A stretch of 64,000 nt of DNA, taken from the NCBI GenBank assembly GCA_951406725.2, contig OX597842.1, positions 28,148,001 to 28,212,000 of the forward strand, written 5' to 3'. Below the pieces are notes generated by a model. That model had not been told where the DNA came from and ran no database searches. It was given only the letters and a program-made list of their open reading frames with translations. Origin of the DNA: Octopus vulgaris (lineage: Eukaryota). A program made the translations under genes and the position numbers. How positions within the stretch are numbered: the stretch's first letter is position 1; every line of letters begins with the position of its first letter. This document shows positions 11,922 to 57,021 of the stretch, in pieces.

Positions 11922-13003
11922 CATCATCAACATCATCATCGTTTAACGTCCGTTCTCCATGCTAGCATGGGTTGGACGGTTCGACCGGGGATCTGGGAAG
12001 CCAGAAGGCTGCACCAGGCTCCAGTCTGATCTGGCAGTGTTTCTACAGCTGGATGCCCTTCCTAACGCCAACCACTCCGTGAGTGTAGTGGGTGCTTTTT
12101 ACATGCCACCTGCACAGGTGCCAGGCGAGGCTGGCAACGGCCACGATCGGATTGGTGCATTTTACGTGCCACCGGCATGGGAGCCAGTCGAGGCGGCACT
12201 AGCATCAGCCATGATTCGGATAGCGCTTTTTACGTACCACCAGTCCAGGGGTCCAGGCATCTGCCGGGTGCCAGTCATAGGATTGGTTCAATTTCGATTC
12301 CGATTTCACTTGCCCCAACAGGTCTTCGCAAGCAGAGAAGTGGGGTTGGCATGGGTGCTTGTCGTCGGATGAGGTTCGATTTCGACTTTGCTTGCCTCAA
12401 CAGGTCTTTGTGTGTCCAAGGGAGGAAAGACATGCATAAGTGGGCTGGACTCACTTGTCCTGCCTGGTCTTCTCACGCACAGTATATTTCCAAAGGTCTC
12501 GGTCGCTGGTCATTGCCTCGGTGAGGCCTAAAGTTCGAAGGTTGTGCTTCACCACCTCGTCCCAGGTTTTCCTGGGTCTACCTCTTCTACGGGTTCCCTC
12601 AACTGCTAGGGATTGGCACTTTTTCACACACCTATCTTCATCCATTCTCGCCACATGACCATACAAGTGCAAACGTCTCTCTTGCACACCACATCTGATG
12701 CTTCTTAGGTCCAACATTTCTCTCAAGGTACCTACACTCTGGCGAGTATGCACACTGACATTACACATCCATCGGAGCATACTGACTTCATTTCTTGCGA
12801 GCTTACGCATGTCCTCAGCAGTCACGGCCCATGTTTCACTGCCATGTAGCATGGCTGTTCGTACACATGCATCATACAGTCTGCCTTTTACTCTGAGCGA
12901 GAGGCCTTTTGTCACCAGCAGAGGTAAGAGCTCCCTGAACTTTGCCCAGGCTATTCTTACTCTAGCCGTTACACTTTCAGCGCACCCACCCTCACTACTG
13001 ACT
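11922..13003 (-). mobile_element. 5'-truncated RTE LINE, present only in unit A
   Basis: (CAT)n tail at 11922-11940. ORF 12451..12915 is the RTE C-terminus. The equivalent site at ~47715 in unit B is empty. Confidence 0.9.
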
Positions 13004-13045
13004 TATATATCGACCATGTGTTTCTCCACTAAAATATTTTCTACC

Positions 13046-13597: not shown

Positions 13598-15140
13598 TCA
13601 TCATCATCATCATCATCGTTTAACGTCTGCTTTCCATGCTAGCTTGGGTTGGACGATTTGACTGAGGTCTGGCGAACCAGACTCCAATCTGATCTGGCAG
13701 AGTTTCTACAGCTGGATGCCTTTCCTAATGCCAACCACTCCGAGAGTGTGGTGGGTGCTTTTATGTGCCACCGGCATGGGGGCCAGTTTGGTGGTACTGG
13801 CAACGGCCACGCCCAAATGGTGCTTTTTGTGTGCCACCTGCACAAGAGCCAGTCCAGCGGCACTGGCAACGATCTCACTCGAATGTTTTTTTCATGTGCC
13901 ACCAGCACAAGTGCCAGTAAGGCGACGCAGGTGACAACCACACTCGAATGGTGTTTTTAACTTACCATCGGCACGAAGGCCAGCTTGTTGCTCTGGCAAC
14001 GATCTCACTCGTATGGTACTCTTAGCGCTCCACTAGCAACGGATACCAGTCACCAAGTTTGATTTCGACTTCGATTTCACTTGCCTCAACTGGTCTTCAC
14101 AAGCAGAGTTTAGTGTCCAATGAAGAAAAGGCACACATAAGGGGACTGGTTACCCCCTAGCATAGGCCACAAGGTTATGGTCACACTTGCGCTTGCCGAG
14201 TCTTCTGCAGCACAGCATATTTCCAGAGGTCCCGGTCATTAGTAATTGCCTCGGTGAGGCCCAATGTTTGAAGGTCATGCTTCACCACTTCATCCCAGGT
14301 CTTCCTGGGTCTACCAATTTTACAGGTTCCCTCATCTGCTAGGGTGTGGCACTTTTTCACACAACTATCTTCTTCCATTCTCGCCACATGACCATACCAG
14401 TGCAAACGTCTCTCTTGCACACCACATCTGATGTTTCTTAGGTCCAACATTTCTCTCAAGGTACTTACACTCTGTCGAGTATGAACACTGACATTACACA
14501 TCCATCGGAGCATACTGGCTTCATTTCTTGTGAGCTTACGCATATCCTCAGCAGTCACGGCCCAAGTTTCACTGCCATGTAGCATGACTGTTTGTACACA
14601 TGCGTCATACAGTCTGCCTTTTACTCTGAATGAGAGGCCCTTTATCGCCAGCAGAGGTAAGAGCTCTCTGAACTTTGCCCAGGCTATTCTTATTCTAGCA
14701 GCTACACTTTCAGCACACCCACACCCGCTACTGACTTGGTCACCTAGGTAACGGAAGCTATCAACTACTTCTAGTTTTTCTCCCTGGAATGTGGCGTAAG
14801 TTGGTCTCTGCGCATTTTCAGCGTTTATTGCTCCTGAGCATCTGCCACAGACAAAAATATTCTTCCCAGTTAGCCTTCCTTTGACATTGCTGCACCTCTT
14901 ATGTGTTCATAGCTTACACTTGGTGTATCTTATAGAGTTTCTACCTACGCCTTTTCTACAGATCGAGCAGGGCCATCTACCTGAAGGTGTTTGTGATTTG
15001 TCTACCTTCCTACTTATTAGGACTTCAGTTTTAGCTAGGTTGATTCTAAGGCTCCTTCGATTCTAATCCTTGTTTCCACACCTGAAACTTCTCCTCCAGT
15101 TCTGATAGTGACTCAGCAATTAGAGCAAGGTCATCAGCAA
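13598..15140 (-). mobile_element. 5'-truncated RTE LINE
   Basis: (CAT)n tail. Matches 226-1175 up to the LYADD region. Duplicated at 48636-50180. Confidence 0.92.
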
Positions 15141-17027: not shown

Positions 17028-18426
17028 GGATCTTTACCTTTCGACCGGCAGATTTAGAAAATAATTTCTTGTAACTAAACACTTTCAAACTTCGTATTCT
17101 GGTAGAATGTGTTGTATAAAACATCTTTTACTCTTAGCGTTTTTGAGAAAAGTTTATATTTACAAAGTTATTTCGTGTTAAATTTGTCGTATTTCAGTAA
17201 TTTCAACCAATCAATGATGTGTATTCAGCTGAATAAAATTACTGCTAACCCATGCTAGCATGCAAAGCGGACGTTAAAGGACGATGATGATGATGATGAT
17301 GATGTTTGTTAACAACAACTGGTGGTATATATTTCGTTTGTTGTTGTTATTTATGACATCGTTCGTGCGTTTGTACTGGTTTTAGCTTTAAGGTGTTAGG
17401 GTTAGAGTTAAGGTTTTAGTGTTAGGGCTAGGGTTTTAGTGTCAGGGCTAAGGTTTTAGGGTTAGGGTTTTAGGGTTAGAGTTAAGGTTTTAGTGTTAGG
17501 GGTAGGGTTTTAGTGTCAGGGCTAAAGTGTTAGGGTTAGGGTTAGGGTTTTAGGGTTAGAGTTAAGGTTTTAGTGTTAGGGGTAGGGTTTTAGTGTCAGG
17601 GCTAAGGTTTTAGGGTTAGGGTTAGAGTTAAGGTTTTAGTGTTAGGGCTAGGGTTTTAGTGTCAGGGCAAAAGTGTTAGGGTTAGGGTTAGGGTTTTAGG
17701 GTTAGAGTTAAGGTTTTAGTGTTAGGGGTAGGGTTTTAGTGTCAGGGCTAAGGTTTTAGGGTTAGGGTTTTAAGGTTAGAGTTAAGGTTTTAGTGTTAGG
17801 GCTAGGGTTTTAGTGTCAGGGCTAAAGTGTTAGGGTTAGGGTTAGGGTTTTAGGGTTAGAGTTAAGGTTTTAGTGTTAGGGCTAGGGTTTTAGTGTCAGG
17901 GCTAAGGTGTTAGGGTTAGGGTTAGGGTTTGAGTTAAGGTTTTAGTGTTAGGGCTAGGGTTTTAGTGTCAGGGCTAAGGTGTTCGGGTTAGGGTTAAAAA
18001 AGTCTTAGCGAAAATAGTAGCTGAAAAACAGGAAAAAACATAACTAAAACCAGTAGAAATGCACGAACGATTCTGGTGGTGCCATGAAGTAAACATGTTT
18101 CAGATAGACTCGTTTTTCATACAAACGTAACTGAGATGAAATATGTCATAAATAACAGTGACAAACGAAATATACACCGCCAGAAGTTGTTGTTGTTGAC
18201 AAACAACGGCAGTAATTTTATTCAGATGAATACACGCCATTGATTGGTTGAAATTACCGAAATACGACAAATTTAACACGAAATAACTTTGTAAATATAA
18301 ACTTTTCTCAAAAACGCTAAGAGTAAAAGATGTTTTATACGACACATTCTACCAGAATACGAAGTTTGAAAGTGTTTAGTTACAAGAAATTATTTTCTAA
18401 ATCTGCCAGTCGAAAGGTAAAGATCC
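17028..18426. mobile_element. Foldback-type non-autonomous DNA transposon with long TIRs and 8-bp TSD
   Basis: Inverted arms of at least 220 bp (ggatctttacctttcgac ... gtcgaaaggtaaagatcc). TSD CCAAATCC at 17020-17027 and 18427-18434. Confidence 0.9.
17385..17997 (+). repeat. Telomere-like (TTAGGG variant) higher-order array inside the foldback element
   Basis: TTAGGG/TTAGAG/TTAAGG/TTTTAGTG variants in ~70-80-bp higher-order units. Confidence 0.93.
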
Positions 18427-18604: not shown

Positions 18605-18810
18605 TCAATTGAATTCTGATGATAAACATTCAAGTGCATCATAATATTCAGTTTTTTCAAGAGCTTCTTTTAATATTCGAAGTGTACGTTTCGCTGGGTC
18701 ACAACGCTGAAACCATCTGAGCAGCATCTGGAAGCCTTGTTCCACAACGTCAAGAGGATAGTCCTGCCTGATGATTTCCAAGTCATTTTGTTTAATTTCT
18801 AATTCCCTTC
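18605..18810 (-). CDS. Gene A terminal exon: Death domain C-terminal part
   Basis: Acceptor ttttgcag|, phase 1. GRELEIKQNDLEIIRQDYPLDVVEQGFQMLLRW...TLRILKEALEKTEYYDALECLSSEFN* follows the death-fold pattern. Confidence 0.88.
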
Positions 18811-20632
18811 CTGCAAAAGAAATAAGAAATAATTGCAACAGCATTAACGATAATATAAAACCTGTATTAATTAGGACAAAGAAATTATGTGAATAGAAGA
18901 ATGAGAAATACTTAAGAAACAGGGAAATTAGAAGACATTGTTATCTATTTCTAAAGATGTTGACAAAAATATCAAACAATTTGAAATAAAGGCTGGAGAA
19001 GGAGAAGAATATTTTAAAGAATTGAAAATTACACATGAGAAAATGTCTGGTGAACAACTGGCAGGAGAAGTGTTTGTGTGGGTAGCAGTGTATGAGAGCC
19101 TAAAGAATTGACAAAGACCACCAACAGATAATTTCATCCAACCGTCCATTTTCTCTGCCCTCTATTCATAAGAGGTTTGTAGGGGAAGAGTCTTCAGGCA
19201 CCTCCTTCATATGATCCTATCAGAGGCAACCTTCATTAGAATTTCTGAAAGGATTTCCAAGCATGGCCAATTGAAACTATGGATATCATCCAACCATTTC
19301 ATTCTTGCTCTACCCCTAGGTCTCCTGTCAGTTGGCTCAGCTTGAAGAATCCCTCTTGTGGTTCTTTCCTGATATTTTAATCACATGCCAGGATTACTGG
19401 AGCTGTGAATTCTCAATGCAGAGAAGCAGTCACTTGACCTGGAGAGACCCCAAATCTCCAGCCTGCACACCTTGTTGAGTAACGTTACTCCAGAGACTCT
19501 TTGGAGGAATACAATCTCAGTCGTTTGATAACGTCCTGTGATCAATGCCTGAGATAGTCATTTGCGATGTCTTTCTACCTATGATTAATAAATATTTAAA
19601 AATTATCAACATTCAGAAATATCTCAAAAGTGGGGATTGTGTACCTGAATGATTTCAACCATCCCAAAGTAAAAACATAATACTGTTAGGTAAATATCAC
19701 ATATTATAGAGGGCACTGGCTTAAGGTTTTTGGATTCATGACTTATAACAAGAACTTCTATCATTGGATCAAGGCCACAATTTCAAAGAATCTAATACAG
19801 GAGAGGCCCTAGAGTAAACAAAGCAATGAGAAGAGTTCTACCAACATCTACACCATACACCTACAACACTCGGGTCCTGATAGAATCACTGCATTCACAA
19901 ACAAGCAAGTTTACAGGGAGGGCAGGTTAAGGTTAGGGCTGAGGAAGGACTTTGTATGTGGCAAATATACAGGAATAGTTCATAGGAACAAGTATGAAAG
20001 ACATAGTTGATAGTTTCTGTTACCTAAAGGACAGAATTAGAAGTAGAGGAAACTATTCTGAAAGCACAGTAGTTAGAAGGAAAACGAGATGAAAAATGTA
20101 CAGGGAGTTGTTATGTCTACTGGCAACTAAGGGATTCTGTCTCCATATGAGGGAGAGATTGCACTTTACAAATACACCTCATGCAATGTTACGTAGAATG
20201 TGAAAGATGCAATGGAAACTGCCAGGAAATGAGGTGAGCAGACATCACTAGAAGTGTAATGTTAATGTGTTGAAAACTTGGAGCCAAATAACTGGATCTC
20301 AGAAGAATCTGTGATAGTGTACAAGAAAAAAGATAATGGTATAGATATAGAAGGGACATGGCAGATGAAATCTGGGTAAAGAAGTGCCTGGAATTCAAGT
20401 GGAAAGAAACAAGCGATCAAACTGGACAAAGGACCACAACAACTCTGGGAGAAGTCGTCTGACCATTACAAACTTAGAAAAATGGATGTAAGGTGATGAT
20501 GATAATGGACCTGGTGTTAGTGGATTCATTTTATCCCAGTATATGACTGGTATATTTTGAATGATACCCAGAGGTATAGCAGGCTGGCAATGTTGTAGAT
20601 GATGTCCTTTCTTAATTTAGATAAATCATTTC

Positions 20633-21501
20633 TGAGTGTGAACTGCCATGCTACATGGCAGTGAAACATGGGCCATGACTGCTGAGGACATGCATAGGCT
20701 TGACAGAAATGAAGGTAGTATGATCCGCTGGATGTGGAATGTCTGTGTGCATACACGACACAGTGTAAACACCCTGAGAGGAAAGTTGGACATGAGAAGC
20801 ATCAAATGTGGTGTGCAAGAGAGACGACTACGCTGGTATGGTCACGTGTTACGTATGGATGAGGACAACTGTGTGAGGAAGTGCCACTCCCTAACTGTAG
20901 AACGAAGCTGTGGAAGAGGTAGACCCAGGAAGACATGGAATGAGATGGTGAAGCATGGCCTTTCAGAGGCAATGGCAGGAGACCGAGACCTTTGGAAATA
21001 TGCTGTGATTGAGAAGACCCAGCAACTAAAGGGAGATCGCAACCATGGCCGATGCCAGTGTTGCATGTCCAGCCCATTTAAGAGTATCCTTAATGCATCG
21101 GGTGACATGATATGCTTGAGAAGACCTGTTGAGTCAAGTAAAACCAAAATTGCAGCTGTGGCCAGTGCCCCATGACTAGCCCCCGTTCTGGTGGCACATA
21201 AAAACCATCATCCGAATGTAGTCGATGCCAGTGTCATCTGACTGACTCCTTGTGTTGGTGGCACGTAAAAAGGCCATCCGAACATGACTGATGCTAGGTC
21301 CACCTGACTGGCTCCTGTACTGGTGACACATAAAAAGCAGCCACTACACTCTCGGAGTGGCTGGCATTAGGAAGGGCATCCAGCTGTAGAAACTCTGCCA
21401 GATCAGATTGGAGCCTGGTGCAGCCACTGGCTCTCCAGACCTCAGTCAAACAGTGCAACCCATGCCAGCATGGAAAACAGACGTCAAATGATGATGATGA
21501 T
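20633..21501 (+). mobile_element. RTE LINE 3' fragment with (GAT)n tail; older RTE debris at 19960-20500
   Basis: ORF 20648..21175 MLHGSETWAMTAED...GRGRPRKTW. Copy at 55090-55958. Confidence 0.88.
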
Positions 21502-22494
21502 GGTTTCTATCAGCTGACTCAGGGGATATTGTCATGATCCCTTGAGTCAGGGATCAAAGGTTCAAATCTAATCCCCAGCACCTGCTCAATGTACCTGGTA
21601 AAGACATTTCTCTATGCTTCACTCTATCTAGATATATATAGGTACCATGGGGAGGTAGAAGACATTGCTGTAAATAATAGGAGCATTGTATAAATGATAT
21701 TTTAGGTTGTGTTAAACTGTCAGAGAAGGGGAAATGGGATATTGTGATGTTCATGCCTTTCCACGTGACATTTGTAATGTAAAGGAGAGTGAAATGATTT
21801 CAATTGAGAAACAAGATCAAGTTGAGTTTGAATTTTCTGTTGAGATTCTTTTTTTTCTAATATAAATGAGTGTTTCATTAACTTACAATGCTGAGTTCAA
21901 TCCAGCCATGAACACAATCAACAATGGGGCCTGTCTTCTATAGAGACAGGAAATATATGTTGACCTGGGACTAAAGAATTACAATAAATATAGAAAAACA
22001 GACTGGCCAGGGGAGAGATGACAACATGTCCCACACAATGCACACTCTCATTTTAAAAAGGTTACATTTGATAATGTGGTCCTCTTCACCCAAGAGAAAG
22101 AGCGATGGCACATCTGGAACCCTTTCCCCTTAATTCTGCCAGATTAAGGCAGATATCTGCCGAAATAAACATCAACAACAACACTCTACTAGTAAACTTA
22201 CTAAAAGTGTAAACAAGCAAAAACATTGTCATTAATTCACCTGTTTACTCTTAAACAACAATATTTTTGAGTCCCCTTTTACAAACGATAGTATTAACTC
22301 TACTGGACCTTCTAATTTATACATTTTACAACCGTGCTGACGTCCGTAGATATTTTATGAAATTTCAGTGATAGCTTTACTTTATAGCTAAACTTTCAAT
22401 TGGAAATTAGGAATGGAACCGGTTCTCAGTCATTCAAACAAACAAAAGTTTAGCTGAAAGTAAAATTTATAGAAATTGGGTATTTTATACTCAC

Positions 22495-22566
22495 CAAGTG
22501 GCTGCCATTTACCTGCCAACTTTTGGGACACCCTATGAAGATGCTTCTCCTCTACCATTACAGACT
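22495..22566 (-). CDS. Gene A exon: Death domain N-terminal helices (72 nt)
   Basis: tatttcag| ... |gtgagt, phase 1-1. Encodes ESVMVEEKHLHRVSQKLAGKWQPLG (L..W..LG death motif) and joins the terminal exon in frame. Confidence 0.85.
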
Positions 22567-24899: not shown

Positions 24900-24950
24900 C
24901 AACAGATTCTGCAACCGTCTGGACTGCTTTTTCTTCAGACTTTGGACACA
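24900..24950 (-). CDS. Gene A linker micro-exon copy (51 nt)
   Basis: cttatttcag| VCPKSEEKAVQTVAESV |gtgagt, phase 1-1. Identical to 25203-25253. Confidence 0.65.
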
Positions 24951-25202
24951 CTGAAATAAGAATTGGAAATTAAGAATGGAACCTGTTCTCAGACATTCAC
25001 ACAAATAATATATTTCAGGTGAAGGTAAAATTTATAGAAATCAATTACAGTATTTTATACTCACCAAAGATCTACTTTTTCTTAACTTTACTGAAATAAG
25101 AATTGGAAATTAAGAATGGAACCTGTTCTCAGCATTCACACAAATAATATATTTCAGGTGAAGGTAAAATTTATAGAAATCAATTAGTTATTTTATACTC
25201 AC

Positions 25203-25253
25203 CAACAGATTCTGCAACCGTCTGGACTGCTTTTTCTTCAGACTTTGGACACA
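25203..25253 (-). CDS. Gene A linker micro-exon (51 nt)
   Basis: Consensus AG/GT sites, symmetric phase 1, no stop. Fits between the RING exon (phase 1 end) and the Death exon (phase 1 start). Confidence 0.7.
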
Positions 25254-26511: not shown

Positions 26512-27062
26512 GAAAATGGCAACAGGTGTCCTCAAACATTCTACACTTGCATAAAAACCTCATTAACTACATATAACTGTTCATCCATATAATTTGCAGT
26601 GCAAATACCTGAAAAGGCACAAAAGAACTGCTTCTCAAGAATCTAGGATATTTCTCACAACCTTCTTCTAGACATCAATCAAAGTTTCCTCACTCGTTTA
26701 ATGACCCCTCTCTGAATCTGCCACATTGCAATGGGGTGAAAACCCAGCTACAAACAAATTTGAGGACACAAAATTTATACCTCTGTACAAGGGTTTGACA
26801 GACACAAACTGTCTTTCCGATGTTGTACTTAATAGAAAAATAACATTACAAGGAATATGTAACACTACTCACTCCCCATTCCACCACAAATGATAATTGA
26901 GATCAACTAATTGAAAATGCCTCTACAATGTTTTATAAATTACATCTAATTAGTGTTGGTGAAAATGATTGGGTCAATTTTCTGCCACTCATTGTGTGAT
27001 ACTAATGTTATTTCATATTTTTTCATTGAATATCTCATCAATAACTTATCAGCTGTTAATAT

Positions 27063-28315
27063 TTGTTGAAAATGTCTCAAAAGAAATCGATTCTTAAAGC
27101 TCAAAGGTCTCAAATCACTGCATTATCAAGTGAAGGATTCTCTCAATTTGAAATTGCAAGAAAACTGAAATGCTTGAGAAAAGATTTCCATCAAAAGTAC
27201 AATGCGATAAATTATTTCAAAAATTGTAAAGGACAAGGTCGCAGAACGTGTACAACCATGAGGGAAGACAGGTTGCTGAAGAGGACATCACTGGCAGATG
27301 GGAAAAACACCTCTTTTGACGAAGCTGCTGAGTTTTGGGTGGCAACAAAAAATGATATATCAACTTCAGTGAGAAGAAGAAGGTTATTAGAAGTTGAGTT
27401 CAAAGGATGTAAGGCCAAAAAGAAGCTGTTACTGTCTGAGGGGAACATGACGAAGCAATTGTGTTGGGCAAAAGAGCATGAAGATTGGACTGCTGATGAT
27501 TGGGCTAAAATTGTTTGGTCCGATGAAAGTAACTTTGATATATGTTCTCCACATTCAATTCCACCACTTTACTAGGCATAATTGAAGTTCTTACACTTGT
27601 ACAAATTTTTTTATTTGATACCAAAAATGATCAGTAATTTTTTTGTCTATCTTCAGATCTTTGGAAACTCAGGAGCTGTTTATGTTCACTGTAAAGTAGG
27701 GGAGGTTTATCATCCTGGATGTGTGGTCCCAACAGTCAAATTTGGATTGGGAAGTGCAATTGTTTGGGGTTGCATGTTGTCTTAAGGCCCTGGAATGTTG
27801 TTCACTTGTAAGGGCAGAATGAATGCCCACACTTACACCAACATGTTAGATCAAGTTTATCAACCTTCTTTAGCTAAAATCTTCAATGATAACACCCCAG
27901 ATGGCAAAATCATTCAACAAAATATTTCTGCATGCCACACATCCAGAGTCTCAATGGGTTGGTGAGGAGAAAGGGATGAGGGTGATGAAATGGCCTCCTT
28001 AGTCTCCAGACCTCAATCCCATTGAATATGTGGTGACACTTAGGTGCAAAAATGTTCTTGAAAAAGCGAATTAGAAACCAAAATTCATGGAGAGTGGCAG
28101 AAAACTGACCCAGCCACTTGTGCCAACTTAGTCTCAAGTATGCAAAAATGCCTAAAAGCAATTATAAAAGCAAAAGGAGGACACATCAAATACTAATTAT
28201 TGATGGGATCAACTCTAGAATGTTCATCAGACTGTTTTCAATTATTAAGTAAATGAGTTTCAATCATATTCCCTATTTTATCATAGCTGCTCTATAATTT
28301 TGGCCAAGGTTGTAT
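27063..28315 (+). mobile_element. Degenerate Tc1/mariner transposon (unit A only)
   Basis: HTH region, IVWSDESNF, VWGCM, WPP*SPDLNPIE and IIKAKGGHIKY* motifs, with stops and frameshifts. Right end ...ttggccaaggttg|ta. Left TIR not identified. Confidence 0.9.
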
Positions 28316-29156: not shown

Positions 29157-29299
29157 CAAATCCACTTTTGCTGCGTATGTGTTGTCGACATATGGGGCAT
29201 TGCTTAAATGTCATTTGAGAACAGCAATTCTGACAAATAACGGTATGTTGACATGGATAGAGTGTGACAGTAGCCTTTTTCTCTTGACACCACCGACAC
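29157..29299 (-). CDS. Gene A exon: RING-HC (C3HC4) finger of Mind bomb/IAP type
   Basis: ccacag| CRWCQEKKATVTLYPCQHTVICQNCCSQMTFKQCPICRQHIRSKSGF |gtaag. 143 nt, phase 2-1. Confidence 0.92.
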
Positions 29300-30290: not shown

Positions 30291-30466
30291 AGTGATTGTA
30301 AAAATGTTTTTAATTTTTCTTTCAAATGTTGATTTTCTATGCAGTCCAATGGGGTCACTTTCTTATCATTACGATGGTATAAGCTGGCTCCATGGCTGGC
30401 AAGATAACTCAAAACTACTATTCCAGAGAGCCTCCTATCCATGTCCAGTTGGAGCTCTCTGCAGCA
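30291..30466 (-). CDS. Gene A exon: terminal ankyrin-like repeat and linker
   Basis: ttgcag| CCRELQLDMDRRLSGIVVLSYLASHGASLYHRNDKKVTPLDCIENQHLKEKLKTFLQS |gtaagt. 176 nt, phase 0-2. Resembles the pre-RING segment of Mind bomb proteins. Confidence 0.88.
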
Positions 30467-32534: not shown

Positions 32535-32744
32535 CTCATCTAAAATAGGAATGCGTTTCACCTCAGAATGAAATTCCTCTTTCTCTGCTGCAATATGCAA
32601 ACAATTATTGCCATCCTTGTCAACGGCATTCATCTTTGCACCGCACGTGATGATTTCATGGACTATTCCGAGGTGGGCTGCATACACGGCTTCCAGTAAG
32701 GGTGTTCTTTTATCATCGTTCTCAATATCCAGTTTCACTGAATC
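32535..32744 (-). CDS. Gene A exon: ankyrin repeats
   Basis: cacaaag| DSVKLDIENDDKRTPLLEAVYAAHLGIVHEIITCGAKMNAVDKDGNNCLHIAAEKE...ILDE |gtaagt. 210 nt, phase 0-0. Confidence 0.9.
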
Positions 32745-35392: not shown

Positions 35393-35429
35393 CTGGGCCA
35401 GCATTGAAGCCACCACATCATGGTGTTGC
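35393..35429 (-). CDS. Gene A short exon (37 nt), ankyrin helix
   Basis: actttcag| (K)QHHDVVASMLAQ |gttagt. Phase 2-0 bridges the 38117 and 32744 exons and completes an ankyrin repeat. Confidence 0.8.
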
Positions 35430-38116: not shown

Positions 38117-38373
38117 TTTTGAACTGCCAGATGGAGAGGGGTGTCACCGTCTTCGTCCACCTTATTGGCATCGATGCCATTCTGTTGCAGGAGAAAATCA
38201 ATAACTTCCTTGTGTCCATGAGTAGAGGCAAGATGTAGAGGGGTGTCACCTTGCTTGGTCTCAGCTTTAACATCCGTGTCTTTATGTTGCAGGAGAAGTT
38301 CAACAACGTCCTTGCTTCCATAGCCCGAGGCAACATGGAGAGCTGTTGCACTAAAATTATTTCGCTGATTAAC
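38117..38373 (-). CDS. Gene A exon: ankyrin repeats (most 5' exon found)
   Basis: tttag| VNQRNNFSATALHVASGYGSKDVVELLLQHKDTDVKAETKQGDTPLHLASTHGHKEVIDFLLQQNGIDANKVDEDGDTPLHLAVQ |gtaagt. 257 nt, phase 0-2. Confidence 0.92.
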
Positions 38374-39496: not shown

Positions 39497-39679
39497 CAGT
39501 CCGCAGTGAAGATTGTTTTTGTGCTGAAAAGTTTGAAAATTTGCTGTTTTGGTCGTGGAGGCCACTTCTTTTCTGCTGTTCTTTCCCCCTTGTTTCAAGG
39601 GGGAAGTGACGAAAAGACATGAATTTGCAACCAGTCTCCTCCGAGTCGGAGGAAAACGTTGAAAATTTGTTTGAAGGCG

Positions 39680-41207
39680 ATGAAGGCGAAAATGCGGGAG
39701 GAAGAATGTAGAAGTAAAGAGACGTCTCACGCGAGCCTCACAAAAGCAGACCACAATATGTCTGGCGAAGTTAGTAAACGACAAGAAAAGGCAAAGATAA
39801 AGTTTGCGAGTGCAGCAACTCGCCCCTGTGAAAATATAGTCATCAACAAGGAAGAATTAAAGAAATACCAAGGACTACTAAAAAAAGAAGGTGATAATGT
39901 GAAGTTGTTCCCTCCCAGTGAATTGATTTACGCGACGGAGAGAAAAACTGTCATATACAAGACTTATAATGTCAAAAATAAGAAAATTGACTTCGTACAG
40001 AGAGAAGCCATAGAAAAATGTTTGAGGCCGATATGGCAACAAACTACATTTATAACAAGGGGTAGTCGCTTCGGCACGGTAGAGGTGCGTTTCCCTAGCG
40101 AAGAAATAGCTAGGGAACATTCAACAAGAACGTTGAAGTCGGAAGAGGTAGTTCTTTTACCATTTTATTTAGGAATGAGAACTAGTAGAATAACGGTTAC
40201 GGACATTCCGCCCGAAATCGAGGTGGATTTTATAACAGCAGCGATTCTCTTAGGCAAAGAGGAAGAAATTGCCATTCTTCAGTCTAAAAGATATCGCCCC
40301 ACAACCTGGTATGGACAGGACTTAGAGCTTGTGATCCAAGCGAACCCTCGGACTTGGAAAAATTGCCAAGCTCCCTCACCATTGGAGATACCACCTTGAT
40401 GGTAATAGTCGAGGGAAGAAAACCGAGATGCTATAAATGTGGCGAGAAAGGCCACATACGGTCGAGCTGCAAGAAGACAGCGAAAGAAAATACTACAGAG
40501 GCAAGCACGACGCCGAAAACAACTTCACCGCTAGAAATAGCAGCCACGTCGCGCACCCCAATTGCCGAAATTCAGCCGACAACGGGAGAAAACGATGACA
40601 ACAACATCAACAACATCCAGGAGTGGGTCAACGTGGAAGCTTCAAAAAGAAGACGGAAACGGAAAAATCCACCCTCTTCGGATACACAGGACTATACTCT
40701 GACACAGACAAGCACACCCACACCCACAAATACAGTCGCAAACACACACGTAGCCAAAAAAACACACACACTGGAAAAAGCACACACAAACACTCACACA
40801 CCTACCACAAGCACGCACACACCTACAAACACCCACGCTTCTACAAGCACACACACACACAGCCCCCTCCACAATCACCTAACAAAAAAAAAAGAAACAC
40901 CTTCACGGCGATAAATAAAAACAATAACCCATTAAGGGAAAAAATTAATTTACTGAAATCGGCGAAAAAATATATCGCAACAGATATAAATAGTATTATA
41001 TCCGAAAATGTAGAATTTTATACGATAGATAACGCGGAATATTTTGAAATTAAAAAATCTTTTGCGGAGGATGTAGGCCCGTTACAGATGAACTTTTCAA
41101 GCCATCTGTACAAGCAATTCGCAAAAAAACTGACCTCGCAAAACACAACACTCACAGACAGAAAAGATGAGGGTGAAACTACACCCTCTCTTCCGTTAAA
41201 ACAGTAA
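39680..41207 (+). CDS. Tx1/L1 ORF1 (gag-like), split by two apparent frameshifts
   Basis: Overlapping ORFs 39659..40399, 40354..40914 (CYKCGEKGHIRSSC) and 40623..41207. One shift is probably at the A-run near 40885. Confidence 0.75.
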
Positions 41208-41226
41208 GTTTTAAACATTCGACTAA

Positions 41227-44200
41227 ATTTTCACATTCTCGTTTAAACTCGGTTGTATAAATACTCGCGGCCTGGGGTCGTATTGGAAGCAAGGCTACCT
41301 CCTTAACGACCTTAGGTCGCATCGTTTGGATGTAGTGGTAATTACCGAATCCAGACTGAGTGGGCTGCAGGCTTTTTCGGCCCTTCTAAACGGCTACGAG
41401 AAATACATTTCTCCCTGTCGACCTGGAGGGGGAGGAGGAGTGGCAGTGCTGGTCAGGAAAAACCTGGATTTAGAGATTAGAACTGTCTTTATAGATCCGG
41501 AAGGCAGGTTGGTCGTTTTGGATGTGACGCACAGCAGTGGTAAAGTGTTCAGGCTGGTCGCTGTCTACGCTCCCTGCGCAGGAAAAGCCGGGCAGAAAGA
41601 GTATTTCAAAAGCCTAGAGAATTTTCTTGGCACGTCGAACACGTTAGTATTGCTAGGTGACTTCAACATAATTTGCGATGCAAGCGTAGATTATGTTGGC
41701 TCGAGAAAGAATACGAGGGGATTACCTCACCTCAACGATATGCTAAGTCGTTTCGAATTGGCAGATAGATTCAGACTGGACCATCCAGACACTCCAGAGT
41801 GGACCTGGGCAAGAAACGACGGGTCGTCCAGATCTTATATCGATAGAATCATAACTAGAAGGAAAGATAAGAAAATACTTAGCTGTCCACAACACCATAT
41901 CGTCAGCTACAGCGATCACAAATTAGTGACCTGTACGCTCGACATAGATAGCATGTGTAGACGAGGTACCGGTTACTGGAAGCTAAACAAGTCACTATTT
42001 GACTGTGAAGCCTACAGGAATCGGATTAAACAATTAGTAATGAGGGCGTTAACCGGATCCATTATCAACAATAAATGGTGGTACGCCCTGAAAAGAGCCA
42101 TCAAATTTGAGTCAATTAGGTTTAGCAAAGAACTAGCTAGTGCTAGAAACAAAGTAGAAAAGGAACTAGTTAAGGCAATAGAGGAGGCAATGAGGTCAGG
42201 CAGTGCATCGAAAGTGTTAGCGGCGAGGTTAGCACTAGACCAACATCTCCAAGCTAAACATGAAGGGTGCATTGTCAGGGCTAAGATCCGTGCAATGAGA
42301 CAGGAAGGGATCAACGCAGCCGGATGGGCCCGGGTGGTAGAGGGCCAGCGTGGCAACAGCTCAACCATTCGATCCTTGACGGGCCCAAATGGTCGATTAG
42401 TAAACGAACCCGAGGAGATGTGCAAGGTGTTTCATGATCATTTCGCCCAGCTATTCGGGAGGAGCGGCGAGCTGGAGCGCGGGGAGAAGCTCGCAGACTT
42501 CCTAGCCGGTTCGCCGCGTCTATCGAGGCCGGACGCGGAATCTTGTGAGGCGCCGATCACAGCCAAAGAAGTCGAGGATATGTTGGCAGAATGCGGCGGG
42601 GACAAATCGCCGGGACTCGATGGTCTGCCTTACGAACTCTATAGTAGCATGCCAGACTTGTTTGGGCACCTACTTGCATGCGTGTACACCAACTGGCAGC
42701 AGAACGGGAGAATTCCTAAGTCTGTGAGCCGAGGGGTGGTAGCGTTGTTAAGAAAGGACCCAAACAAGGGGGATTTAATTGATAATTTCCGGCCTATCAC
42801 TCTGCTTAACGCAGAGTTGAAGATCTTGGCCAAGGTCTTAGCAAAAAGGTTGGCGAGGGTCGTGGGTGAACTTGTTGGCGAGGCGCAAACTTGCGCCATC
42901 CCTGGAAGGACCATCCAAGACAATCTCCACTTTCTACGCTATGCCTTAGAAAGGGTAAATAGGATTCCTGGCAAGGGTGGGGCTATGGTCCACTTGGACC
43001 AATCGAAAGCGTTTGATAGGGTGGACCATCAGTATCTGGCGGCGGTCCTCGCGGCGGCTGGCTTCGGCCCGACCTTCCGCGGATGGATCTTCGCTTTATA
43101 CAGCAACATCGAATCGGTAGTTCGGGTAAATGGTTTCCTTTCGGAACCGTTCAGCATTGAACGTTCGGTACGTCAAGGGTGTCCTCTCTCCCCGCTTCTC
43201 TACGTTTTGGCCCTCGAGCCGTTGCTGAGGAGGTTGGAAACTATGAGAGGCACCCCGCAAGATCTAGGGTGCGGAAAGTCAGCTTCGGCGTATGCGGACG
43301 ACATCACCGTCATCGTTTCCCGAGTCGAGCACCTACAGTGGGTGGGTGAGGCCTTAAGGGACTACGAAGCGGTGGCAGGAGCGAAAGTCAACCGGGATAA
43401 ATCGGTCGGCTTGCAACTCGGCACCTGGAGGGGCAAGTCGATGTCTTCCGACAGCGTCGTAGGACGTTGGACGGAAGGACCGGTGAAAATGCTTGGGATC
43501 TGGTTAGGTCCAGATCTCCAGATAGAGAAGAATTGGAGCGAGGTGGCGAGAAAGGTGGCTCTCCTAACTCAGACATGGTCTGAACGGAATCTGTCCTTGA
43601 AAGGGAAGGCGGAGGTTGCAGAAGTGTTTATCGCCTCTGTAATCACTTACCGCCTAACCGTAGTGCCTTGCCCCGATTCGTGGCTGAACAAACTGGAACG
43701 CATGCTCTTTCGCTTTTTGTGGAGGGGCAGCAGACCTCTTGTAAGGCGCTCTATTTGCTGCCAAAAGCCGCTGAACGGTGGGTTAGGGATGCCGTGGCTA
43801 AAAATGCGCAGACATGCGCTCAGGCTAAGGCACCTCTGGATTTACCTGGACGGTGAGCAGGTGTGGTCTCCGTTTGTCAAGCTGTTATTTCCACAGTTCA
43901 CATCGTTTAACGAACTGAACCCATGGATCAAGTGTAGACCGAGGTTGGGCATGTGGCATGCAGAGTGCTATCAGGCACTCGTGCTTCTCTCCCAGTCGGG
44001 CAACGCCGGTGGCGGGGCTACTACCGCGTTCTTCTATAGAGGGTTAGTAGAGTTTAAGTGTGACGACGTCCTAGGAGAAACTCTGGGCTTCGACGAAAAT
44101 CAACTGGCCAGCCTGTTCCAAAGAACATTCGGTCCGGGGCCTATGGATAATTACCAAAAGTCCCTGGCCTGGCAATGTTACAGAGGAGCTTTACCGGTTC

Positions 44201-44643
44201 GAGATAAGCTCTTTAGACATGGGTGTGCACCTTCGCCGGTTTGTGCAAGATGTAAGAGGGACAGTGAAACTGTCCTGCACGCGATTGTGCAATGCCCCAA
44301 GGTGACTGAACTCTGGACTTATGTCGAACACCTGCTGTCGCATTCGAGAAGAGTACAACTGTCGAGCGAATCTGTAATTAAGATAGTTCCGCCGACCTTC
44401 CTGAATAGGGAGGAGCGAGCCTGTTTTCTCTCGGTAGTTGCTATGGCGAAAGAAGTAGTGTGGAAGACGAGAGTAAAAGGAATTGCAACAGGCATGTTTA
44501 TCTCCAGTCTCGAGCTAATCGACTTTTTCGTTTTCCACATGAAACGGAAAATAAGGCTGGAGAAGAAATGCCTGTCGCAAAGTGTGTTTCGTAAAAGATG
44601 GAAGTCTACAGCAAGTATGTTGCGAGTGAAAGAACCTGTTTAA
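41227..44643 (+). CDS. Tx1/L1 ORF2: APE endonuclease, RT, C-terminal zinc finger; intact, no initiating ATG
   Basis: Open from the stop at 41224. Motifs CINTRGL, ITESR, GDFN, SYIDRI, SDH, YWKLN, KSPGLDG, DQSKAFDRV, RQGCPLSP, YADD, CARC...HAIVQC. Confidence 0.95.
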   Translation: MFTFSFKLGCINTRGLGSYWKQGYLLNDLRSHRLDVVVITESRLSGLQAFSALLNGYEKYISPCRPGGGGGVAVLVRKNLDLEIRTVFIDPEGRLVVLDVTHSSGKVFRLVAVYAPCAGKAGQKEYFKSLENFLGTSNTLVLLGDFNIICDASVDYVGSRKNTRGLPHLNDMLSRFELADRFRLDHPDTPEWTWARNDGSSRSYIDRIITRRKDKKILSCPQHHIVSYSDHKLVTCTLDIDSMCRRGTGYWKLNKSLFDCEAYRNRIKQLVMRALTGSIINNKWWYALKRAIKFESIRFSKELASARNKVEKELVKAIEEAMRSGSASKVLAARLALDQHLQAKHEGCIVRAKIRAMRQEGINAAGWARVVEGQRGNSSTIRSLTGPNGRLVNEPEEMCKVFHDHFAQLFGRSGELERGEKLADFLAGSPRLSRPDAESCEAPITAKEVEDMLAECGGDKSPGLDGLPYELYSSMPDLFGHLLACVYTNWQQNGRIPKSVSRGVVALLRKDPNKGDLIDNFRPITLLNAELKILAKVLAKRLARVVGELVGEAQTCAIPGRTIQDNLHFLRYALERVNRIPGKGGAMVHLDQSKAFDRVDHQYLAAVLAAAGFGPTFRGWIFALYSNIESVVRVNGFLSEPFSIERSVRQGCPLSPLLYVLALEPLLRRLETMRGTPQDLGCGKSASAYADDITVIVSRVEHLQWVGEALRDYEAVAGAKVNRDKSVGLQLGTWRGKSMSSDSVVGRWTEGPVKMLGIWLGPDLQIEKNWSEVARKVALLTQTWSERNLSLKGKAEVAEVFIASVITYRLTVVPCPDSWLNKLERMLFRFLWRGSRPLVRRSICCQKPLNGGLGMPWLKMRRHALRLRHLWIYLDGEQVWSPFVKLLFPQFTSFNELNPWIKCRPRLGMWHAECYQALVLLSQSGNAGGGATTAFFYRGLVEFKCDDVLGETLGFDENQLASLFQRTFGPGPMDNYQKSLAWQCYRGALPVRDKLFRHGCAPSPVCARCKRDSETVLHAIVQCPKVTELWTYVEHLLSHSRRVQLSSESVIKIVPPTFLNREERACFLSVVAMAKEVVWKTRVKGIATGMFISSLELIDFFVFHMKRKIRLEKKCLSQSVFRKRWKSTASMLRVKEPV

Positions 44644-48635: not shown

Positions 48636-50180
48636 ATCATCATCATCATCATCATCGTTTAACGTCTGCTTTTCATGCTAGCATGGGTTGGACGATTTGA
48701 CTGAGGTCTGGCGAATCAGACTCCAATATGATCTGGCAGAGTTTCTACAGCTTGATGCCTTTCCTAATGCCAACCACTCCGAGAGTGTAGTGGGTGCTTT
48801 TACGTGCCACCGGCATGGGGGCCAGTTTGGTGGTACTGGCAACGGCCACACTCAAATGGTGCTTTTTATGTGCCACCTGCACAGGAGCCAGTCCAGTGGC
48901 ACTGGCAACGATCTCACTCGAATGTTTTTTTCATGTGCCACCAGCACAAGTGCCAGTAAGGCGACGCAGGTGACGACCACACTCGAATGGTGTTTTTAAC
49001 TTACCATCGGCACGAAGGCCAGCTTGTTGCTCTGGCAACGATCTCCCTCGTATGGTACTCTTAGCGCTCCACTAGCAACGGATACCAGTCACCAAGTTTG
49101 ATTTCGACTTCAATTTCACTTGCCTCAACTGGTCTTCACAAGCAGAGTTTAGTGTCCAATGAAGAAAAGGCAAACATAAGTGGACTGGTTACCCCCTAGC
49201 ATAGGCCACAAGGTTATGGTCACACTTGCGCTTGCCGAGTCTTCTGCAGCACAGCATATTTCCAGAGGTCCCGGTCATTAGTAATTGCCTCAGTGAGGCC
49301 CAATGTTCTAAGGTCATACTTCACCACTTCATCCCAGGCCTTAATAGGTCTACCTCTTCCACAGCTTCCCTCAACTGCTATGGTGTAGCAGTTTTTCACA
49401 CAACTATCTTCATCAATTCTTGACACATGACCATACCAGTGCAAACGTTTCTCTTGCACACCACAACTGATGCTTCTTAGGTCCAACATTTCTCTCAAGG
49501 TACTTACACTCTGTCGGGTATGAACACTGACATTACACATCCATTGGAGCATACTGGCTTCATTTCTTGTGAGCTTACGCATATCCTCAGCAGTCACGGC
49601 CCAAGTTTCACTGCCATGTAGCATGGCTGTTTGTACACATGCGTCATACAGTCTGCCTTTTACTCTGAACGAGAGGCCCTTTATCGCCAGCAGAGGTAAG
49701 AGCTCCCTAAACTTTGCCCAGGCTATTCTTATTCTAGCAGCTACACTTTCAGCACACCAACCCCGGCTACTGTCTTGGTCACCTAGGTAACGGAAGCTAT
49801 CAACTACTTCTAGTTTTTCTCCCTGGAATGTGGTGGAAGTTGGTCTCTGCGCATTTTCAGTGTTTATTGCTCCTGAGCATCTGCCACATACAGAAATTAT
49901 CTTCCTAGTTAGCCTTCCTTTGACATTGCTGCACCTCTTATGTGTCCATAGCTTACACTTGGTGCATCTTATAGAGTTTCTACCTACGCCTTTTCTACAG
50001 ATTGAGGAGGGCCGTCTACCTGAAGGTGTTTGTGATTTGTCTACCTTCCTACTTATTAGGACTTCAGTTTTAGCTAGGTTGATTCTAAGGCCCCTTCGAT
50101 TCTAATCCTTGTTTCCACACCTGAAACTTCTCCTCCAGTTCTGATAGTGACTCAACAATTAGAGCAAGGTCATCAGCAAT
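48636..50180 (-). mobile_element. 5'-truncated RTE LINE (duplicate of 13598-15140)
   Basis: Same boundaries and flanks as the unit A copy. Confidence 0.92.
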
Positions 50181-52094: not shown

Positions 52095-52872
52095 GGATCT
52101 TTACCTTTCGACCGGCAGATTTAGAAAATGATTTTTGTAACTAAACACTTTCAAACTTCGTATTCTGGTAGAATGTGTCGTATAAAACATCTTTTACTCT
52201 TAGCGTTTTTGAGAAAAGTTTATATTTACAAAGTAATTTCGTGTTAAATTTGTCGTATTTCGGTAATTTCAACCAATCAATGGCGTGTATTCATCTGAAT
52301 AAAATTACTGCCGTTGTTTGTCAACAACAACTTCTGGCGGTGTATATTTCGTTTGTCACTGTTATTTACGACATATTTCATCTCAGTTATGTTTGTATGA
52401 AAACGAGTCTATCTGAAACATGTTTACTTCATGGCACCACCAGAATCGTTCGTGCATTTCTACTGGTTTTAGTTATGTTTTTTCCTGTTTTTCAGCTACC
52501 CTAACCCTAACCCTAAAACCTTAGCCCTGACACTAAAACCCTAGCCCTAACACTAAAACCTTAACTCTAACCCTAAAACCCTAACCCTAACACCTTAGCC
52601 CTAACACTAAAACCCTAGCCCCAGCACTAAAACCTTAACTCTAACCCTAAAACCCTAACCCTAACACCTTAAAGCTAAAACCAGTACAAACGCACGAATG
52701 ATGTCATAAATAACAACAACAAACGAAATATATACCACCAGTTGTTGTTGACAAACATCATCATCATCATCATCCTTTAACATCTGCTTTGCATGCTAGC
52801 ATGGGTTAGCAGTAATTTTATTCAGCTGAATACACATCATTTCAAAATCTGCTGGTCAAAAGGTAAAGATCC
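52095..52872. mobile_element. Foldback element, unit B copy: interior inverted, right arm partly deleted, short CCCTAA array
   Basis: Same TSD CCAAATCC (52087-52094, 52873-52880). The core reads CCCTAA rather than TTAGGG. Confidence 0.9.
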
Positions 52873-53050: not shown

Positions 53051-53256
53051 TCAATTGAATTCTGATGATAAATATTTGAGTGCATCTTGACATTCAGTTC
53101 TTACAAGAGCTTCTTTTAATATTTGAAGTGTATGTTTCTCTGGATCATTACCTCGCTGCCATCTGAGCAGCATACGGTAGCCTTGTTCCACAACGTCAAG
53201 AGGATAGTCCTGCTTGATGATGTCCATGTCATTTTGTGGAATTCCTAATTCCCTTC
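53051..53256 (-). CDS. Gene B terminal exon: Death domain C-terminal part
   Basis: GRELGIPQNDMDIIKQDYPLDVVEQGYRMLLRWQRGNDPEKHTLQILKEALVRTECQDALKYLSSEFN*. Same acceptor and length as A. Confidence 0.88.
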
Positions 53257-55089: not shown

Positions 55090-55958
55090 TGAGTGTGAAC
55101 TGCCATGCTACATGGCAGTGAAACATGGGCCATGACTGCTGAGGACATGCGTAGGCTTGACAGAAATGAAGGTAGTATGATCCGCTGGATGTGGAATGCC
55201 TGTGTGCATACACGACACAGTGTAAACACCCTGAGAGGAATGTTGGACATGAGAAGCATCAAATGTGGTGTTTAAGAGAGACGACTACGCTGGTATGGTC
55301 ACATATTACGTATGGATGAGGACAACTGTGTGAGGAAGTGCCACTCCCTAACTGTAGAACGAAGCTGTGGAAGAGGTAGACCCAGGAAGACATGGAATGA
55401 GATGGTGAAGCATGGCCTTTCAGAGGCAATGGCAGGAGACCGAGACCTTTGGAAATATGCTGTGATTGAGAAGACCCAGCAACTAAAGTGAGATCGCAGC
55501 CATGGCCGATGCCAGTGTTGCATGTCCAGCCCATTTAAGAGTATCCTTAATGCATCGGGTGACATGATATGCTTGAGAAGACCTGTTGAGTCAAGTATAA
55601 CTAAAATTGCAGCTGTGGCCAGTGCCCCACGACTAGCCCCCGTTCTGGTGGCACATAAAAACCATCATCCGAATGTAGTCGATGCCAGTGTCATCTGACT
55701 GACTCCTTGTGTTGGTGGCACGTAAAAAGGCCATCCGAACATGACTGATGCTAGGTCCACCTGACTGGCTCCTGTACTGGTGACACATAAAAAGCAGCCA
55801 CTACACTCTCGGAGTGGCTGGCATTAGGAAGGGCATCAAGCTGTAGAAACTCTGCCAGATCAGATTGGAGCCTGGTGCAGCCACTAGCTCTCCAGACCTC
55901 AGTCAAACAGTGCAACCCATGCCAGCATGGAAAACAGACGTCAAATGATGATGATGAT
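55090..55958 (+). mobile_element. RTE LINE 3' fragment (duplicate of 20633-21501)
   Basis: Near-identical sequence with (GAT)n tail. Confidence 0.88.
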
Positions 55959-56949: not shown

Positions 56950-57021
56950 CAAGTACCATCCATTTACCTGCCAACTTTTGGGACACCCATTGAAGATGCC
57001 TCTCCTCTAGCGTTACAGACT
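56950..57021 (-). CDS. Gene B exon: Death domain N-terminal helices (72 nt)
   Basis: ESVTLEERHLQWVSQKLAGKWMVLG. AG/GT intact, phase 1-1. Confidence 0.85.

Follow-up and report, generated by a model that had tools for sequence, protein, structure and literature searches.

Two neighboring gene copies on the reverse strand of an Octopus vulgaris contig, here called A and B, raise the question why exons encoding a death domain should differ between them far more than the intron that these exons enclose. Both lie in the window, the whole analyzed stretch of 64,000 nt, past whose end B continues, and they belong to a family of Octopus ankyrin-RING-death-domain genes that descends from Mind bomb. 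Their parts, and a retrotransposon between them, are located as follows:

18605–18810, reverse strand: copy A terminal exon, death-domain helices 2–6 and stop (Pfam PF00531 Death, 29.9 bits, cut-off 22.6; splice context)
18811–22494, reverse strand: copy A intron interrupting the death domain, 3,684 nt, containing decayed remnants of retroelements (1.7% divergence from B)
22495–22566, reverse strand: copy A 72-nt exon, which encodes helix 1 and the first part of helix 2 of the death domain (equal to the L047 exon, inside a 255-bp identical tract)
24900–24950, reverse strand: copy A linker mini-exon, 51 nt
25203–25253, reverse strand: copy A second linker mini-exon, 51 nt (family transcripts splice such an exon type to the 72-nt exon)
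29157–29299, reverse strand: copy A RING (C3HC4) exon, intact (Pfam zf-C3HC4_3, 45.6 bits; splice sites)
30291–30466, reverse strand: copy A post-ankyrin exon, Mind bomb-like
32535–32744, reverse strand: copy A ankyrin exon
35393–35429, reverse strand: copy A 37-nt exon, with an internal Met at which transcripts might be read from
38117–38373, reverse strand: copy A variable ankyrin-array exon, three repeat motifs; no exon of A was found farther 5'
39623–44643, forward strand: non-LTR retrotransposon with a zinc knuckle and an endonuclease and reverse transcriptase ORF of 1,138 aa
53051–53256, reverse strand: copy B terminal death-domain exon (Pfam PF00531 Death, 33.4 bits)
53257–56949, reverse strand: copy B intron interrupting the death domain, 3,693 nt
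56950–57021, reverse strand: copy B 72-nt exon
58928–59049, reverse strand: copy B degenerate RING exon, with an in-frame 18-nt deletion and loss of Cys/His ligands, identical in L040 (no Pfam match)
63565–63923, reverse strand: copy B variable ankyrin-array exon, four repeat motifs

The family start exon is absent from both copies. Two further ankyrin exons of B lie past the window end, and no ATG exon was found for this copy, including beyond the window. The retrotransposon occupies the expected place of A's 5' exons. Public gene models are unreliable in this cluster; one of them joins B and A as a 712-aa protein.

Exon and Intron Divergence of Copies A and B

Aligned without gaps, the terminal exons differ at 29 of 206 nt, with 20 amino acid changes and two purely silent codons, and the 72-nt exons at 9 of 72 nt, with seven amino acid changes and no silent codon (27 amino acid changes in both exons together). 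These counts agree exactly with those of a preceding sequence-only reading of the locus, which had also described the exons as free of stops; no stop codon is present and the splice sites are intact. The same reading had judged the enclosed intron to diverge by only a few percent, and indeed 63 of 3,677 aligned sites differ (1.7%; 63 of 3,675 in a second alignment), far below the exon rate (Fisher's P = 2e-19); a further 655 intronic bases contain two differences. If the cluster at about 18698–18718 is read with gaps, as a pair of 3-nt indels (BLAST), the exon count becomes 32 of 275 (P = 6e-15). The dN/dS of the pair, proposed there as a check, is not significant when A and B are taken alone (0.176/0.075; Fisher's P = 0.13), whereas the excess of replacements is evident in the clade to which they belong (see below). 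Even the path-averaged silent differences between the two copies, at 4 of 56 sites, are more frequent than differences in the intron (P = 0.016).

A Clade of Mosaic Copies

The intron of A and B is common to at least 14 copies, 13 of which match a 600-bp probe at 98–100% identity and one of which covers only a part of that probe; 12 of these paralogs were analyzed as clade c1. Intron distances in the clade amount to 0.7–2.8% among at least 12 copies, and A and B are not sisters: the intron of A is only 1.0–1.1% distant from those of L031, L038, and L034. For 23 of the 27 amino acid differences both states are also present among the remaining paralogs, and no state is private to A. These 23 differences are shared states, not changes that followed an A/B duplication. 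Furthermore, a tract of 255 bp that spans the 72-nt exon is identical between A and L047. Both copies are mosaics drawn from a common variant pool; that they are 5'-truncated mosaics within a clade of at least 14 had escaped the sequence-only reading. Spliced family joints were observed in four runs presumed to be RNA, none of them assignable to A or B.

Probable Positive Selection on the Death Domain

Across the 12 c1 genes, intron diversity (pi) is 0.018, whereas the exons have a piS of 0.069 (95% CI 0.035–0.107) and a piN of 0.141 (0.110–0.174). The resulting piN/piS of 2.05 is significant (bootstrap P = 0.0012), and that of the nine genes with a start-exon match is 2.19 (P = 0.0008). Codon site models, run with custom-written code on exon and intron trees, gave an M0 omega of 2.6–2.8, and M2a placed 32–34% of the sites at an omega of 5.6–5.8 (LRT 63–66). 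The LRT was 36 when double and triple hits were allowed, and 20 without A and B. None of 450 neutral-plus-conversion simulations reached a piN/piS of 2.05, the maximum being 1.40. With a separate tree per segment and multi-hit rates, codons 25–47 (P = 3e-4) and 48–68 (P = 0.025) were significant, codons 1–24 were marginal (P = 0.067), and codons 69–91 failed (P = 0.20). The excess of dN over dS in c1 withstands recombination and multi-nucleotide hits, with two of four segments significant singly. Segregating sites point in the same direction (64 of 164 0-fold vs. 4 of 19 4-fold sites), the 4-fold sites being too few to use. In clades c2 and c3, positive selection was not detected by the site model (LRT 0.8 and 0.6, respectively); their silent diversity likewise lies above that of their introns.

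The predicted model of the death domain has six helices (pLDDT 88.9), with RIPK1 as the best match by both sequence (E 1e-5) and fold (TM 0.85–0.88, Foldseek E 2–3e-3). Core positions are variable in 6 of 22 cases, compared to 49 of 69 elsewhere (P = 4e-4), and none of the selected sites is in the core. The hydrophobic core is spared by diversification, which bears out the earlier observation that core residues are kept in A and B. The selected codons (6, 7, 21, 22, 30, 32, 43, 46, 57–60, 75, and 80) map to parts of the domain that correspond to Ia, Ib, IIa, IIb, IIIa, and IIIb, by the type I/II/III interface definitions in excerpts of PMC11874512. They are spread over all three interface types and single out none of them; the homotypic interaction surface suggested by the sequence-only reading is one candidate for the selected surface.

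The ankyrin array, with 3–10 repeat motifs per exon, has its highest entropy at turn and helix-1 positions. For the ankyrin ends, site models with multi-hit rates gave LRTs of 22–34 and the tree-free piN/piS was 1.3–1.4, which is not significant (P = 0.06–0.13). The ankyrin exon appears to diversify as strongly as the death domain, so that the effect is probably not specific to the latter, a point that the sequence-only reading had likewise missed. Between B and its neighbor C, moreover, the RING exon differs at 9 of 121 sites vs. 10 of 1,614 in the introns, so that part of the effect is gene-wide.

Probable Gene Conversion and the Age of the Exon Variants

A PHI-like test detected recombination in the exons (P = 0.0005) and in the intron (P = 0.008), and singletons make up 33% of variants in the exons vs. 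70% in the intron. The silent diversity of c1 is 3–4 times its intron diversity, with a silent-equivalent tree length of 0.36–0.45 vs. 0.116 for the intron. Since silent sites are so much deeper than introns, homogenization of the introns probably acts besides selection. The c1 gene L035 differs from its O. sinensis match at 3 of 91 residues, whereas c1 paralogs differ at 24 on average; five of eight O. sinensis death domains match a retrieved paralog at 88 or more of 91 residues, and grouping of exons by ortholog across species was observed for one c1 gene. We infer that the exon variants predate what the introns suggest, an age argument that rests on one cross-species c1 match, and that selection would have held them against homogenization. 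Bulk import of exon variants from older clades was considered and rejected, as variants common to c1 and outer clades are not enriched in exons (42 of 108) over the intron (83 of 271; P = 0.15). Polymorphism in common with c2 (7 of 23 exon vs. 0 of 38 intron sites) and with c1b (6 of 15 vs. 11 of 103) was given no weight, because one third of the c1 exon sites are polymorphic anyway. Divergence dips within 100–200 bp of the exons, which fits conversion or splicing constraint.

The explanation that we favor with reasonable confidence is that A and B belong, as mosaics truncated at their 5' ends, to a tandem clade of ankyrin-RING-death-domain genes, that the death-domain surface residues of c1 have likely diversified under positive selection, and that short gene-conversion tracts likely shuffle variants among the copies and homogenize their introns. 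Diversifying selection and conversion had been offered beforehand as alternatives; both find support, selection at the level of the clade, and the two probably operate jointly.

Of the competing explanations, the one that survives best, though unlikely, is that the copies are old paralogs with long-fixed, distinct death domains and homogenized introns, where selection does no more than hold out against conversion and replacements are not truly in excess. It would account for the deep silent diversity and the stability of the domains across the species split, and it has a precedent in the gibbon L/M opsins, whose paralog exons diverge beyond their introns with intron conversion (PMC3213168, excerpt). 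However, homogenization alone cannot raise piN over piS, and ratios of 2.05–2.19 never occurred in neutral simulations; in addition, the exons are themselves patchworks, and omega already exceeds one by segment in codons 25–68. Snake SSP genes, too, have paralog exons that diverge beyond their introns, with KA/KS > 1 in young pairs (PMC6609765, excerpt). Unlike the opsins and SSPs described in these excerpts, with 2–5 copies, the octopus clade has at least 14, patchwork exons, and an intracellular signaling domain.

Quite improbable is a pure burst of selection after recent duplication, in which the introns would give the true age of the copies and the exons would have diverged entirely since then. 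The intron tree is star-like with weak support, omega is high, and there is no overall excess of variants from outer clades, all of which speaks for such a burst, but silent sites are raised too, most A/B differences are shared states, and the L035 domain has hardly changed since the O. sinensis split. Exon-targeted hypermutation in relaxed or pseudogenizing copies, by RNA editing with cDNA-mediated conversion, CpG decay, or an error-prone polymerase, is very improbable. Exon boundaries are sharp, differences are adjacent more often in exons (43%) than in the intron (12%), and several copies are damaged, A and B by truncation, L048 and L098 by frameshifts, and L044 by a stop. Against this, the core is spared, piN exceeds piS, CpG transitions are few, and neither c2, c3, nor the A-type RING exon is hypervariable; RNA editing and cDNA-mediated mutation of exons were rejected, as sense-strand A>G changes are not in excess (12 of 89 vs. 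22 of 211; P = 0.43). An assembly artifact, in which A and B would be alleles left uncollapsed or errors of the consensus, is hardly credible: their intron distance of 1.7% is near the 1.22% heterozygosity given for one O. vulgaris specimen in an excerpt of PMC10700109, and some paralogs have 1-nt indels, but at least 14 copies carry the intron, A and B differ in exon content with middle introns only about 69% alike, the differences keep frame and avoid the core, and in four independent DNA-type runs exon contigs differ at many sites and intron contigs at few.

Relation to Mind Bomb and Other Known Systems

Like Mind bomb (MIB1/MIB2), the octopus proteins carry a C3HC4 RING after their ankyrin repeats. 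An O. sinensis member aligns to the MIB1 chain 8v0e_A in one stretch (residues 3–124, E 6e-12), Atlas neighbors of the family include mib1-like and MIB2 clusters, and public labels read MIB2-like; region 190–395 of P0050, used as a query to find full-length relatives of MIB, returned generic ankyrin proteins only. Unlike MIB1/MIB2, the family lacks the N-terminal MZM (MIB_HERC2) substrate-binding region, which no family member contained among the 21 proteins scanned, and whose 10 genomic matches are all on other contigs (none on C29–C31). It also differs from their terminal catalytic RING in having a single RING, followed by a linker and the death domain. This RING is broken in B, L040, L035, and L031. 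As MIB1 activity depends on RING3 (bioRxiv 10.1101/2024.03.01.582834, excerpt), the RING that the family has retained may be inactive.

The likeness to RIPK1 is modest, as other death domains score nearly as well, and the label denotes likeness, not orthology; in contrast to RIPK1, the family has no kinase domain. A kinase-less octopus protein labeled RIPK1 (P0040), which may be IMD-like, has a death domain 41% identical to that of the family.

According to excerpts of PMC4986451, fungal NLRs with highly conserved ANK, TPR, or WD repeats vary in the number of repeats, evolve in concert, and are positively selected on the binding face of the ankyrins. The octopus ankyrin array varies in repeat number as these repeats are described to do. 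Unlike fungal NLRs, the family lacks NACHT and NB-ARC, neither of which was found in the members scanned, and diversifying selection extends to its putative effector domain. The primate CASP1/CARD16/CARD17 genes form a tandem death-fold cluster with conversion, pseudogenes, and positive selection (PMC11630849, excerpt); conversion is proposed there to keep the CARDs alike, whereas the octopus death domains stay about 26% different while their introns are alike.

Possible Function

The c1 copies likely exchange short stretches of DNA, and selection likely promotes novel surface residues, a pattern known from immune-recognition genes. In most variable receptor families, it is the sensor that diversifies, and the signaling adaptor domain is conserved for docking on a fixed partner. 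One young octopus clade varies its death-domain surface plus the ankyrin array; its sister clades conserve the death domain. The chances that these proteins are intracellular innate-immune or cell-death sensors appear about equal to the chances that they are not. As such sensors, they would bind targets by the variable ankyrin array and nucleate a signaling assembly by the RIPK1-like death domain. Pathogen inhibitors or partner matching would then press the surface of this assembly domain to change.

A more far-reaching and rather unlikely reading is a recognition library variable at both ends, in which a DARPin-like ankyrin binder would be combined with a per-gene surface code of the death domain, reshuffled by exon-centered conversion with truncated copies like A and B as donor cassettes, and only compatible death domains would co-assemble. 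If true, this would constitute intracellular self/non-self matching comparable to fungal allorecognition or clustered protocadherins. The clade offers about 14 natural death domains that have their core in common and differ at the surface, and with this panel the rules of death-domain specificity, and cephalopod intracellular immunity, become directly testable.

Divergence of the A and B death-domain exons

The units A and B, two 5'-truncated copies on the reverse strand, are partly duplicated and lie ~35 kb apart in the window. Both encode a death domain in a terminal exon (18605–18810 in A, 53051–53256 in B) and a 72-nt exon (22495–22566 and 56950–57021), and the exons of both score as Pfam Death. 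Ungapped alignment reproduced the counts of the sequence-only reading: the two terminal exons show 29 mismatches in 206 nt, with 20 amino-acid changes and 2 codons that change only silently; the 72-nt exons show 9 mismatches, with 7 amino-acid changes and no silent codon. The intron between them differs at 63 of 3,677 sites, and the higher divergence of the exons, as had been claimed, is real (P = 2e-19). That the change is mostly non-synonymous holds for the counts, but not as a selection signal in this pair, because the pairwise dN/dS of 0.176/0.075 falls short of significance (P = 0.13) and the pair's silent differences are by themselves more frequent than intron differences (P = 0.016). 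The alignment stops ~210 bp beyond the stop codon, where a tandem-repeat block (17213–18426 versus 52095–52841) is inverted between the copies.

A lacks ~1.1 kb, including one ankyrin exon. No start exon of B was found in ~20 kb of contiguous upstream sequence, and a genome search (40 candidates scored) recovered start exons for nine of the 12 genes of clade c1, which contains A and B, and none for A, B, and L041. A complete third copy, C (L034 with L066–L067), lies past the window end, head-to-head with B, with 99.7% identity to it across 657 intronic bases adjoining the 72-nt exon. Mobile elements in the window are:

39623–44643, forward strand: non-LTR retrotransposon, possibly young, located at the A/B junction where A's 5' exons are expected; its endonuclease/reverse transcriptase frame is open over 1,138 aa
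226–3399 (reverse strand), 12446–13004, 14058–15139, 49097–50178, 27060–27575: other LINE-type reverse transcriptase fragments and a Tc1/mariner-like remnant

The public 712-aa model P0001 fuses B and A, likely an annotation artefact. It omits B's 72-nt exon, cuts short its terminal exon, and takes its start from a short stretch lying 7 kb before the first genuine exon of B.

Gene family and architecture

The terminal exon had 137 matches among 150 scored genome candidates, mainly on contigs C29–C31. Of these, 34 were taken together with A and B (36 loci); 33 had a 72-nt exon match, and dropping L048 (frameshift) and L049 (length difference) left 31. At least 14 copies have a closely similar death-domain intron. 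The analysed c1 comprises 12 copies, leaving out L033 (no 72-nt exon match) and L048; L042 and L047, whose introns are shorter and more divergent, also fall outside it. The paralogs L098 (C29:27.60 Mb), L048, L044, and L033 are damaged by, respectively, 1-nt indels in two exons, a terminal-exon frameshift, a stop interrupting the 72-nt exon, and a 72-nt exon not found within 9 kb. In L034 and L041 this exon is reduced, in frame, to 57 nt. Of the splice junctions of family transcripts, one occurred in all four presumed-RNA runs, a second in two, and a third in one; the pattern of a variable exon with conserved flanks recurred in four DNA-type runs, including letters not in B.

The death domain is preceded by 51-nt linker exons, a RING exon, and ankyrin exons. 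The linker exons (window 24900–25253; L031–L064), detected in 0–7 copies per 10-kb locus, have flanks in common with the 72-nt exon. O. sinensis also has proteins with the ankyrin-RING-death layout, and relatives in O. bimaculoides show ankyrin and RING together with a similar domain at the C-terminus. In its ankyrin-RING part the family is related to Mind bomb, but it has no MZM region and only a single RING. Since RING3 is reported to be required for MIB1 activity (bioRxiv 10.1101/2024.03.01.582834), ligase activity of the family is uncertain. The predicted model of A's death domain has six helices (pLDDT 88.9), and RIPK1 is its best match by sequence and by fold (TM 0.85–0.88; no Foldseek E <0.001). 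The kinase-less proteins P0040 and P0044, in O. bimaculoides and Argonauta, carry a C-terminal death domain ~40% identical to that of A; proteins of this type are candidates for the origin of the family's domain or for its partner.

Probable selection on the death domain

Across paralogs, dN/dS lies above 1 in c1. Its intron diversity is 0.018, silent diversity (piS) 0.069, and replacement diversity (piN) 0.141, a ratio of 2.05 (codon bootstrap P = 0.0012) that was reached in none of 450 neutral simulations with conversion. In the other clades, c1b, c2, and c3, piN/piS is 0.68, 0.67, and 0.47. Codon site models, run with purpose-written code, gave an M0 omega of 2.6–2.8 for c1, and M2a placed 32–34% of sites at omega 5.6–5.8, with likelihood-ratio statistics (LRT) of 63–66 on two trees; c2 and c3 gave 0.8 and 0.6. 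The c1 LRT is 36 once double and triple hits are allowed and 20 without A and B. Restricting c1 to the nine members for which a start exon was recovered gives a piN/piS of 2.19, so A and B are not needed for the signal. With per-segment trees, codons 25–47 and 48–68 are still significant, codons 1–24 marginal, and codons 69–91 not significant.

The core residues are kept, as the sequence-only reading had stated. When 36 distant homologs are used to define the core, c1 varies at 6 of 22 core versus 49 of 69 other positions (P = 4e-4); A and B by themselves differ at 3 of 22 and 24 of 69 (P = 0.07). Selected sites do fall in regions assigned to the type I/II/III interfaces proposed for mapping (definitions as in PMC11874512), but are spread over all three. 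The helix-2 arginine aligned with that of RIPK1 is invariant, and the adjacent codons 21–22 are selected.

Recombination and age of the variants

A PHI-like test detected recombination in exons (P = 0.0005) and intron (P = 0.008), and the nearest paralog of A differs segment by segment. A and L047 share an identical 255-bp tract that includes the 72-nt exon, while their introns elsewhere are ~4–12% apart. For 23 of the 27 A/B amino-acid differences both states are present in other paralogs, and A has no private state. Shared-state A/B sites make up 29 of 38 in exons versus 30 of 64 in the intron (P = 0.004), and singletons 33% of exon versus 70% of intron sites. A simple import model is disfavored, because c1 exon variants are shared with outer clades no more frequently than intron variants (P = 0.15).

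The silent-equivalent tree length is 0.36–0.45, compared to 0.116 for the intron. Of eight O. sinensis domains compared with the 31 paralogs, five match at ≥88 of 91 positions, one is a mosaic (79/91), and two have no close match. The sole c1 match, L035, differs at 3 positions, the average among c1 copies being 24; published values are 2.5 Mya for the split of O. vulgaris and O. sinensis and 1.22% for heterozygosity (PMC10700109). From this one c1 comparison we infer that the exon variants may be older than the similarity of the introns implies.

Ankyrin and RING exons

The ankyrin-array exon encodes 86–323 aa across paralogs (27 matches). Its site models, run on 15 of the 16 distinct copies whose downstream introns are close (mean 1.4%), are significant (LRT 22–34 with multi-hit rates), with tree-free ratios of 1.3–1.4 that are not significant. 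The exon (window 38117–38373, 63565–63923; L071–L097) holds 3–10 near-identical 34-aa repeat motifs, whose variability peaks at positions 3, 5, 13, and 14 in our register. For the A-type RING exon, which accounts for 18 of 47 matches, piN is 0.044 and piS 0.053, with introns at 0.021–0.028. Between B and C, all three compared exons diverge more than introns. The RING exon of B (58928–59049) is degenerate and identical to that of L040, with a common in-frame deletion. L035 has a different RING deletion, found also in O. sinensis P0009, and the RING of L031 is frameshifted. These recurrent broken RINGs could represent decoy or adaptor-only forms.

Interpretation

Diversifying selection and conversion had been offered as alternatives. 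Selection in c1 is supported, as is recombination between copies, homogenization of the introns is probable, and the two mechanisms probably act jointly: we consider it fairly probable that positive selection on the surface, conversion, and intron homogenization together shape the c1 death domains. Surface change might be driven by pathogen inhibitors or partner matching. On architecture and analogy with fungal NLR repeats (PMC4986451), the chances that the family has an immune or cell-death sensor role seem about even; MIB2 is also reported to control RIPK1 (PMC5912950) and bacteria to target death domains (PMC11874512), both of which can be invoked for it.

Exon-over-intron divergence has been described for opsins (PMC3213168), snake SSPs (PMC6609765), and primate caspase-CARD genes (PMC11630849). 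No description of the family or its selection was found in the literature searched, although subscription papers or octopus genome supplements might mention it. The evolutionary regime is known and the octopus family apparently undescribed; what is unusual is diversification of the death domain itself, seen in one of its clades.
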